A DNA stretch of 5,271 bases. Origin: a virus (taxonomy: Duplodnaviria; Heunggongvirae; Uroviricota; Caudoviricetes). A program made the position numbers. The DNA is taken from positions 1 to 5,271 of IMG/VR virus record IMGVR_UViG_2713896905_000002, one strand, 5' to 3'. This document shows, piece by piece, positions 987-3,900 of the stretch (its first letter is position 1; every line of letters begins with the position of its first letter).

Positions 987-3900
987 ACTGGACCGCCACC
1001 GGGGACTCGAACCTCGCACACTCAACTTAAAGGGTTGACGCTCTTTCCTGATGAACTGGTGGCGGTTGGTGGCCCTTGCTGGATTTGAACCAGCGACCTG
1101 GCGATTATGAGTCGCTCGCTCTCACCACTGAGCTAAAGGGCCGGGCGCAGGATAATAACGTTACGAAATCAATGTTGCAAGCATTCAAGAATCACCTGGT
1201 TAAAAATTACCCTTACTTCCTCCACCAGCGCATTCACCATGTCTATCCGAGATAAGTGGCACAAAAAAACCCGCTTGTGGGCGGGTTTTGTTTGCTTTTG
1301 CCATCACGTACAAAATCGGCAAAATATCAGATTTGCATAAAATATATGCCTTTTAATCTACTTTTGCAATATTTTGCTGTGAAAATGCCGTCTTTTGTTC
1401 TGAGCGCGTTCTCGTCGTAAACAATAAAGCTTCACTATCCAGCTGATGAAAAATGTGTTTCATTGCAATCCAGTGACCAGTATATGTTTTGGACCAGTTT
1501 TTAGTTGTCACTCCCACCAGTGATGCCAGCTCTTGGTATTCATAGGTCTCACGCCCTGCCAGTTCGCTCTTCACATCCTGTGCTGCCAGCCAGATTAACG
1601 TCTTCAGGCGATCCAGTGTTTTACCTGCAATTTTTCTGGTACCCAACAGAGCCTTAAACTCGCTCCATGCCCACTGCGTTATGGCAACCTGATGCTCCCA
1701 GCGAATATTTTCACTGTAACTCCACAGCAACCATGCTTTCTGATGTTCATCGAGAGACAAAATCGCACGCCGCCATGAAGAGGTTGAAAACTCGACCGAA
1801 CTGACCAAGGCGACAGATGAACCTTTTGCGTACGACTGTTTACCGGAAATCGGCGGATTATCCAGCGTAATCATCTTGCCAGTTACCACATCCAGAATAC
1901 GCGGTTTCTTTCGTTTGTATGTACCAGTATCAAATTGTGCATGCTCCTGCCAGACTTCAAGCTGACCTTTCATTGCTCCGTTCAGGTCAGCAGTAGCTGC
2001 CATAAGTTGCTCACGAACATATTGTAAATATTGGGTATTCATGCGGCAGCTCCTTTCAGTGTTTTGGCGTAATTCTTCAGTATTTGGTAATCGGTAAAAA
2101 CAGAACCGGGGAAACGATATAAGCGCAGGCACACCCAGCGACGGCGAAGGAGTTCTGATATATAAGACTCAGACATCATTCCCCGGTTCTCCAATATCTG
2201 TTTCACTCATCATCCATAACTATCTGTAACTGCCCCCTTTGTAACAGCTCTTATATTGCTATATGGAATAGCCATAACTAATTCATTTAAAATCAATAAA
2301 TAACATTATAAAAACACAAAACACCATGCAAACACACTTTACAAAAGCACTACCACATTAAAAGTAGGTAATAAAAATTATAATAAAAATAAATTCATTG
2401 TTTATCACACATAATTATAAAACACCATATTGATTACGCCCCTTGTATTATAAATACACGTATGTAAAATACGCGCCCTATTCAAAAAAAAGGAAGACAA
2501 TAACATATGAAAAAACGTGTCATCGCTGGGGGCTTTATTGCTCTGTCATTTACCGCATATTCAGCTATCGCGGACAGCCTTGCATTATCATTAGCAAATG
2601 ATGATGCAGGGAAGTTGCAACCAATACTTAATGATATTTATGGCAATAAACATGAAAACAGAGATGATTACTCACAAGGCTTATTTCTGGGATATAGCCA
2701 CGATATATCAGACTCGAGTCAGTTATCTCTCCATATTGCGCAAGATATTTACTCTCCGTCAGGCAGTAATAAAAGACACAACACAGCTGTAACTGGAGAC
2801 AGAGCTTTTAGTGCATACACTCACACAGGTATTGAATGGAACGCCCTTGCTAATGAGTGGATTCGTTATCGATTAGGTACTGACATAGGTGTTGTTGGTC
2901 CAGACGCAGGCGGTCAGAAAGTACAAAATAAAGCTCATGAGATTATTGGTGCAGAAAAATATCATGCATGGGATGATCAAATAGAGAATCGTTACGGTTA
3001 TACTGTAAAAGGGATGCTATCCGTGACACCAAGCATAGATATTTTAGGTACTAATATTGGATTATACCCAGAAATTTCTGCTGTTAGTGGGAACTTATTT
3101 CAATATGTAGCATATGGCGCAACCATTGCCATCGGTAATGACAGAACCTTCAATTCGGATAATGGCTTTGGTCTGCTGGCTCCACGTGGTTTAATGCATA
3201 TGTCCGATACAAGCGGATTCAAATACAAGATTTTTGCAGGTATGGAAAGACGAGATGTCAATCGCAACTATACTCTCGAAGGAAAAACAATACAGACGAA
3301 ACAAACGACAGTATCGCTAAACAAAACTGTTGATGAATATCAAGTTGGCGCAACAATTGGGTATGCACCTGTAGCCTTCACACTAGCATTTAATAAAGTA
3401 ACATCAGAATTCAAGACAGGGGATGACTATTCATTTATAAATGGAGCAATCACCTTCTTTTTTTAACTGAATTGAATTCAATCAAAATAACATAAGCCCA
3501 ACAAAAACATAAAGTGCGAAATGAATGCTAGCTCCATTTATTTCGCACTATAAAAGGTTAAAAGTTGCAATAAAATAATAAAATGACTCAGTTACGAAAA
3601 CCAATAAACTGTGGCCAGTAGTGAGTCGCTCATCATCGGGCTTTTTGGCGAATGAAATTTAACTACGCTTTCGAGTCTCATGCGCCTTCTCCTTGTACCT
3701 GAATCAATGTGAGGTTTCCGCAGAACACTGCGCCAGTATCGATATACATCTGGTTGGCAAATTTGAGTGGTTTCACTGCTGGCGTATGACCAAAGATGAA
3801 CGTGTCCGCGCCTTTGATTTCTTTCACGATCCCGTCTTGTGAGTTGCTGATTCGTTCGCGATTCCAGATTACCTGCTGATTATCAACTGGCTTTCCAAAC

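Follow-up and report, generated by a model that had tools for sequence, protein, structure and literature searches.

The stretch of DNA analysed here (the window) comprises positions 1 to 5,271 of the virus record IMGVR_UViG_2713896905_000002 (Caudoviricetes) and is the entire contig BBVV01000036.1 of assembly GCA_001514905.1 (5,271 bases; Escherichia albertii). It covers the late-regulatory part of a lambdoid prophage, and its gene at positions 1353 to 2042 is, with a probability that we put at about 0.95, a phage-82-type Q, the late-gene switch (lysis and morphogenesis) of this E. albertii prophage. A first-pass annotation of the sequence had based the antiterminator assignment on synteny only. 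This did not hold, as the assignment is carried by 85.6% full-length identity to the characterized Q protein of phage 82, by membership of PHROG 304 and by the cognate cis elements found beside the gene.

1353..2042, minus strand: Q gene, 229 amino acids, phage-82-type (PF06323) late-gene antiterminator (profiles, identity, AlphaFold2 model, NCBI name)

Family membership of the Q protein

Q proteins have been divided into three families without obvious mutual sequence similarity, Q21 (PF06530), Q-lambda (PF03589) and Q82 (PF06323) (PMC9388147, PMC7171158). A Pfam profile search established the membership of the window protein in the last of these (Phage_antiter_Q; E 2.7e-92, 308.9 bits for a cut-off of 25), with residues 4-219 aligned on positions 1-216 of the 220 of the hidden Markov model and with each half of the protein matching separately. 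No Pfam family besides PF06323 was retrieved for the whole protein (E <= 0.01) or for either half (E <= 10), and in PHROGs phrog_304 'anti-termination protein Q-like' (E 6.6e-106) was the sole match at E <= 0.01, while no NCBIfam model matched. The suggestion that the protein could belong to a Q family other than that of lambda was therefore borne out by a match over the full length to one of the three recognized families, and the possibility also raised, that of an unrelated late-operon regulator, is rejected by these searches.

Sequence comparisons led to the same family. Using tblastn, the window Q was found to be 85.6% identical to the Q protein of phage 82, the prototype of PF06323 (X92588, 'phage 82 Q antiterminator'; CAA63332.1), over 229/229 residues and without gaps, and 86.9% identical to the Q protein of phage 434, annotated 'Q82-like'. 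Database proteins matching at E <= 0.001 number 2,605; those listed carry PF06323 and, among the named matches listed, most are called antitermination protein Q. All 15 residues invariant among 79 non-redundant family members, the window protein included, are retained (R10, A16, G26, W90, R91, R92, L97, W104, Y109, W126, L149, Q155, W183, W191 and L206). Under the accession WP_059229527.1, NCBI lists the exact protein as 'bacteriophage antitermination protein Q [Escherichia albertii]'. The protein had thus already been annotated, and it is an ordinary member of a well-known family.

The open reading frame is intact over its full length on the minus strand, from an ATG at 2042 to a stop codon at 1355-1353. 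A 259-residue version starting from a GTG at 2132, taken from a mechanical list of open reading frames, was rejected in favour of the 229-residue version because of an AGGAG located 7 nt 5' of the ATG, of the ATGA overlap with the ylcG stop codon and of the length of the homologs; phage 82 Q and nearly all close homologs have 229 residues and the N-terminus MNTQ.

As first reported, the 229-residue frame contains no cysteine at all (count 0). From this absence it had been concluded that the assignment rested on synteny only, but the absence is no argument against a Q function, since phage 82 Q itself has none. Cysteine-free proteins amount to 67 of 294 full-length homologs, and the two alignment columns occupied by cysteine in 85-89% of the non-redundant family set correspond to S108 and T122 in the window Q; phage 82 Q likewise lacks cysteine at both. 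To have no cysteine is normal in the Q82 family, which is devoid of the zinc finger that lambda Q bears as an insertion.

By contrast, lambda Q (PF03589; PDB 4MO1) has a Cys4 zinc finger and 7 cysteines, and shows no significant sequence or profile similarity to the window Q. In four lambda-family Q proteins, 7-14 cysteines are present and C118, C121, C144 and C147 are invariant; together with the lack of any PF03589 or PF06530 match, this confirmed the early view that the protein is not lambda-type. An hhalign comparison of the Q82 profile with the lambda/HK022/ST104/phiKp_30 Q proteins, a weak test with just 4 sequences, three of them near-identical, did not reach significance (E 0.11, 23 columns), and the single segment paired was the recognition helix (TKNWSKT in the window Q, TQPTWSRT in lambda Q). 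The window Q has neither a profile nor a fold match to the phage 21 Q family (PF06530), which is a functional analog located at the same genome position (PMC9388147, PMC7171158).

Predicted structure

The protein consists of an N-terminal body (residues 1 to ~165) followed by a helix-turn-helix (HTH; residues ~167-195) containing the recognition helix TKNWSKTYTGHW. An AlphaFold2 model, computed from a 79-sequence alignment (23-90% identity), has a mean predicted local distance difference test (pLDDT) score of 80 and a predicted template modeling score of 0.70, and a confidently predicted helical body spans residues ~80-220 (block means 82-96). The C-terminal HTH-like segment noticed from the sequence was recovered in this model as a helix at 169-176, a turn and a helix from 180 onward (pLDDT 90-96), and the same C-terminal HTH has been described for 82Q with AlphaFold (Wen et al., 2022).

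Comparison with solved structures, which had been proposed as a check, returned two antiterminators, lambda Q and AlpA, as the best fold matches. Foldseek against the PDB gave AlpA only, and weakly (E 0.28), while against BFVD it returned one family member and was otherwise uninformative. PDB sequence searches with the protein and with the 79-sequence family profile found nothing meaningful, and no Q82-family structure is deposited. AlpA of Pseudomonas aeruginosa (PDB 7XYA/7XYB) has no sequence similarity to the window Q and is a chromosomal cell-death regulator, whereas the window Q is a phage late-gene switch. A distant structural kinship with lambda Q is possible, and these matches are an independent repeat of the published suggestion that these antiterminators have a common architecture.

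Late promoter, pause element and terminator

The cis elements were examined in the window and in a set of related loci, 102 in all with the window. This set contains 18 of 19 loci from GTDB genomes, 79 of 80 from IMG/VR contigs, phage 434, an O157 prophage, PPompW and 606R7. Two loci were left out, L031, which has no recognizable helix, and L106, whose Q is truncated. In the latter (IMGVR_UViG_2698536392_000004), the Q frame ends after 106 codons, which suggests that the gene has decayed.

1364..1369, minus strand: -35 hexamer TTGCAA of the late promoter PR', within the last Q codons (promoter scan; conserved in the 102 loci)
1355..1363, minus strand: core AAGTAGATT of the candidate Q-binding element (QBE), directly 3' of the -35 hexamer (helix/9-mer pairing in the 102 loci; binding putative)
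1341..1346, minus strand: -10 hexamer TATATT of PR' (promoter scan)
1321..1329, minus strand: extended -10-like TGATATTTT in the initial transcribed region, ~+6 to +14 (candidate sigma-70-dependent pause element)
1262..1293, minus strand: intrinsic terminator tR', AAAACCCGC/GCGGGTTTT stem and T run (sequence, RNA fold)

The two promoter hexamers are separated by 17 nt, and transcription would start at about position 1334. A pause-like element of the form TG[AG]TAT lies at a constant offset, 34 nt past the -35 hexamer, in 98 of the 102 loci. As its -10-like hexamer ends at about +14, a sigma-70-dependent pause is predicted near +25 at the window promoter. The same position has been reported for phage 82, in which the polymerase pauses 25 bp downstream of PR' (PMC9191641, PMC4914094); the QBE of that phage is located within the promoter, between the -35 and -10 elements and inside the -31 to +30 region (PMC4914094). 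In lambda, by contrast, the pause occurs at +16/17 (PMC9191641).

The terminator reported earlier at 1262-1293 was confirmed; on the minus strand, it consists of a GC-rich hairpin with seven T on its 3' side. Folding of the RNA from 1334 to 1255 gave -24.3 kcal/mol (z -3.4), and tR' is 97-100% identical to that of the PPompW and 606R7 phages. The presence and geometry of these elements reproduce the Q82-type gene order, in which Q lies directly 5' of the late promoter and is followed by the pause-like element, the terminator and the lysis genes.

The leader between PR' and tR' has features of its own. A 5' hairpin is predicted at ~+11 to +39, which is absent from the 434/O157-type leader. No Rfam family reaches its gathering score within the leader, and two sub-threshold matches were obtained on the minus strand at 1264-1337, to isrK (22.7 bits, threshold 50) and isrJ (24.5 bits, threshold 37). 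Both RNAs presumably belong to the late region of the Salmonella prophage Gifsy-1, whose Q is 67% identical to the window Q. The Rfam listing gives isrK and isrJ as Hfq-binding RNAs. The terminated leader may be a small RNA in its own right.

Proposed mechanism

For phage 82, it has been reported that Q binds the QBE in the promoter and acts on the sigma-dependent complex paused at +25, with a beta-flap contact and the cooperation of NusA (PMC9191641, PMC4914094), terminator read-through and antipausing are known for 82Q, and its antitermination has been reconstituted in vitro (PMC4914094). By homology to 82Q, Q binding, pausing, read-through and NusA dependence would be expected at the window locus. 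Host RNA polymerase carrying sigma-70 would initiate at PR', from the -35 hexamer within the last Q codons, and would pause ~25 nt downstream owing to the re-binding of sigma-70 to the -10-like TGATATTTT. The C-terminal HTH of Q would bind the element AAGTAGATT just 3' of the -35 hexamer, and the bound protein would engage the paused polymerase at the beta-flap and the RNA-exit channel. Remaining with the elongation complex with the aid of NusA, Q would shield or extend the RNA exit path. The hairpin of tR' and the terminators beyond it would thereby be disabled, and the polymerase would read past tR' (from 1293 to 1262) to transcribe the tRNA, holin and endolysin genes. Without Q, the transcript would end at tR' as a leader RNA of ~70 nt.

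Pairing of the recognition helix with the promoter 9-mer

Across the 102 loci, the recognition helix and the DNA co-vary. Five helix types (for example NWSETFTERW, NWSKTFTRHW and STWTETYLPHW) map one to one on five 9-mers located directly past the -35 hexamer of PR', and none of the loci is discordant.

Class I, 85 loci: helix NWSETFT[ED]RW, 9-mer A[AG]CTGGATT
Class II, 4 loci: helix NWSKT[FY]T[RGT]HW, 9-mer AAGTAGATT
Class III, 7 loci: helix [SP]TW[TS]ETY[LQ]PHW, 9-mer AACCGAACT
Class IV, 3 loci: helix TNWSQNYV[ED]H[WY], 9-mer AAATGAACT
Class V, 3 loci: helix DNWS[HK]NY[AG]DYW, 9-mer AA[AG]TCAATT

The window pair is concordant and belongs to class II, along with PPompW, 606R7 and a Raoultella prophage. 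Given that the QBE of phage 82 has been reported between the -35 and -10 elements, the pairing is the pattern that recognition of the QBE by the HTH would give. It is confounded by linkage, as less than 150 bp separates the helix codons from the 9-mer and co-inheritance alone could yield it; that class I is kept while the identity of the N-domain ranges from 64% to 96% is only a mild argument against linkage. The N-terminal body of the window Q is 88-96% identical to class I alleles. A tentative reading, which we hold at a little under even odds, is that the Q82 family has a readable specificity code and that the window allele is a domain-swap chimera, in which an 82/434-type body that engages the polymerase has been joined to a class II helix, binding element, leader and terminator.

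Comparison with related phages and mosaic structure of the allele

Phage 82 shares with the window, besides the length of Q and its lack of cysteine, a small gene (ylcG/orf45) that overlaps the Q start by the same 4 nt. The only phage 82 record retrieved, X92588, stops at the end of the Q gene, and the late region of the 82 type was therefore represented by phage 434 and O157 prophages. As in the window, the last Q codons of these relatives contain the -35 hexamer of PR', and the position of a -10-like element suits a pause at +25. Differences are also present: K185, G189, H190 and H199 of the window Q are E, E, R and L in phage 82 Q, the 9-mer beside the -35 hexamer is AAGTAGATT in the window versus AACTGGATT in 82/434-type loci, and past ~+20 the leader and terminator DNA is unrelated to the 434/O157 type. 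In phage 434 and in the E. coli O157:H7/O55:H7 prophages, Q (86.9% identity, annotated 'Q82-like') is preceded by the same genes as in the window, ninG, ninI, a lambda-Q stub, lpxR and ylcG; downstream, phage 434 and O157 have a membrane-protein/DUF3927 region and another terminator, whereas the window has four tRNA genes.

PPompW prophages and vB_EcoM-606R7 resemble the window at the 3' end of the gene and past it. They share its helix class (NWSKT.T.HW) and its QBE 9-mer, and their DNA is 93-100% identical to that of the window over the PR' leader, the terminator and the first tRNA. In contrast, their Q proteins are only 74-75% identical overall (73-74% over the N-terminal 165 residues), and rusA stands upstream of Q in place of ylcG-lpxR.

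This double resemblance can be followed along the DNA. From ylcG to about codon 176 of Q, the sequence is of the 82/434 type (~80-98% identical in 60-nt windows, versus 60-80% to PPompW/606R7); variants of the PPompW type are found at codons 180-199; between codons 200 and 225 the sequence is nearer 82/434, with unique changes; and from codon 228 onward, through the spacer of the promoter, the leader, the terminator and the first tRNA, the DNA is 93-100% PPompW/606R7-type and unlike 434. The closest full-length alleles are P0305 from E. albertii (92%) and P0001 (90%), and 15 of the 19 differences from P0305 and 14 of the 24 from P0001 fall within residues 180-229. Collectively, the window allele appears to be a recombinant whose N-terminal body is of the 82/434 type, and the comparison suggests that the donor lineage of the C-terminal residues lies outside the sequences compared. 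An assembly chimera (the contig being a 5.3-kb draft) is an unlikely source of the mosaic, the C-terminal 50 residues including some of neither parental type.

Weighing of alternative explanations

Several points weigh against assigning a working Q82 switch to this locus. The allele is mosaic, its last 50 residues differing at 15 positions from the closest E. albertii relative, and Y187, G189, I192, T209, E215 and T218 are unlike those of the five close relatives aligned and of the two nearest database alleles; because of this mosaic structure, full activity of the allele is an assumption, its activity being taken from homology to 82Q. Residues 25-78 are of low confidence in the AlphaFold2 model, and whether an 82-type Q forms a closed nozzle, as Q21 and lambda Q do, or acts as a shield is an open question in the literature (PMC9388147). 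Finally, the contig is only 5.3 kb long, and the prophage may be incomplete or non-inducible. Many lambdoid prophages of E. coli and E. albertii are defective, and the gene could be a dead relic of such a prophage or an ill-matched recombinant, its reading frame having stayed intact; the unique C-terminal 50 residues of the mosaic, the occurrence of the exact Q sequence on a single 5.3-kb contig and the truncated Q at the related locus L106 would be compatible with this. The frame is, however, of full length, without frameshift and with every family-invariant residue retained, and no damage is seen in the promoter, the pause-like element, the terminator, the holin or the start of the endolysin. 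Moreover, the helix/QBE pair is concordant and recurs in PPompW, the 606R7 phages and a Raoultella prophage. A non-functional relic is therefore not favored, and we consider it unlikely.

Far less probable still is that the Q slot is simply filled by a transcription factor of another kind, for example an activator of late genes or a DNA-binding, replication or modification protein without relation to Q. Activator-type names do exist among distant members ('late transcription activator' for N15 gp40, 'transcriptional activator/anti-terminator' for phage 434), and the protein has an HTH. Nevertheless, Pfam and PHROGs gave the Q82 family alone for the whole protein and each half, the identity to 82Q is to a protein whose antitermination was reconstituted in vitro, the best fold matches are two antiterminators, and a terminator stands between the promoter and the late genes, as antitermination requires. 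A lambda- or phage-21-type Q that diverged past recognition and lost its zinc site deserves hardly any credence, being excluded at the level of both the sequence and the zinc site. An intact Q of the phage 82 family remains the reading that we retain.

Neighboring genes

On the minus strand, the gene order is ninE (partial), ninF, ninG, ninI (a Ser/Thr phosphatase), a stub, lpxR on the opposite strand, ylcG and Q, followed by the intergenic region, four tRNA-like genes, a phage-21-type holin and the start of an endolysin gene.

3592..3681, minus strand: lambda-type Q remnant of 29 codons, overlapping the ninI stop (translation, tblastn)
2507..3466, plus strand: lpxR (lipid A 3'-O-deacylase) moron, between the lambda-Q stub and ylcG-Q (PF09982, E 2.5e-39)
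2039..2179, minus strand: ylcG-family small gene, equivalent to phage 82 orf45 (NF033498 YlcG, E 1.6e-17; gene call)
833..1142, minus strand: four tRNA-like genes, Met/Ile-CAT, Lys-UUU, Thr-UGU and Gly-UCC (ARAGORN; Rfam confirms three)
325..540, minus strand: phage-21-type holin S, late gene (PF04971, E 7.4e-36)
1..325, minus strand: 5' part of the endolysin gene, which runs off the contig (PF00959, contig gene call)

The first ~20-24 residues encoded by the stub correspond to the N-terminus of a lambda-type Q (lambda, HK022, P22-like; 84-95% identity), and the annotations of phage 434 and of O157/O55 prophages include the same stub. A lambda-type Q was thus truncated here, with an lpxR-ylcG-Q82 module now standing downstream of the stub. 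The description of the 229-residue protein as being in the Q position calls for one qualification: the slot immediately after ninI holds only the lambda-Q stub, and the working Q lies 1.5 kb further on, past lpxR and ylcG. The gene lpxR is located in an AT-rich island and is found as well in phage 434 and in O157:H7/O55:H7 prophages. The ylcG stop and the Q start overlap as ATGA, an arrangement also present in phage 82 and phage 434.

The four tRNA-like genes would be the first Q-dependent late transcripts. One of them, annotated as tRNA-Lys(UUU) (989-1065, minus strand), is below the Rfam tRNA threshold, its sole match being tRNA-Sec (20 bits, E 0.24), and may be degenerate or atypical. Elsewhere, the tRNA sets are Met-Lys-Arg in PPompW and Met-Thr-Gly in 606R7, while O157 and phage 434 have protein genes instead. 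The replaced tRNA region accounts for the incomplete (83%) coverage of the window by E. coli genomes.

Significance

A protein without cysteine in the Q position is not anomalous, since the Q proteins of lambdoid phages come from three families that look unrelated and the family of phage 82, to which the protein belongs, has no zinc finger. What the window adds is only mildly new, namely a recombinant allele and the strict helix/9-mer pairing over the family. In a family without experimental structure, this pairing over ~100 loci points to the site where an 82-type Q reads DNA. If it is functional and not mere linkage, it would provide a set of orthogonal Q/QBE pairs and the location of the DNA-reading residues.

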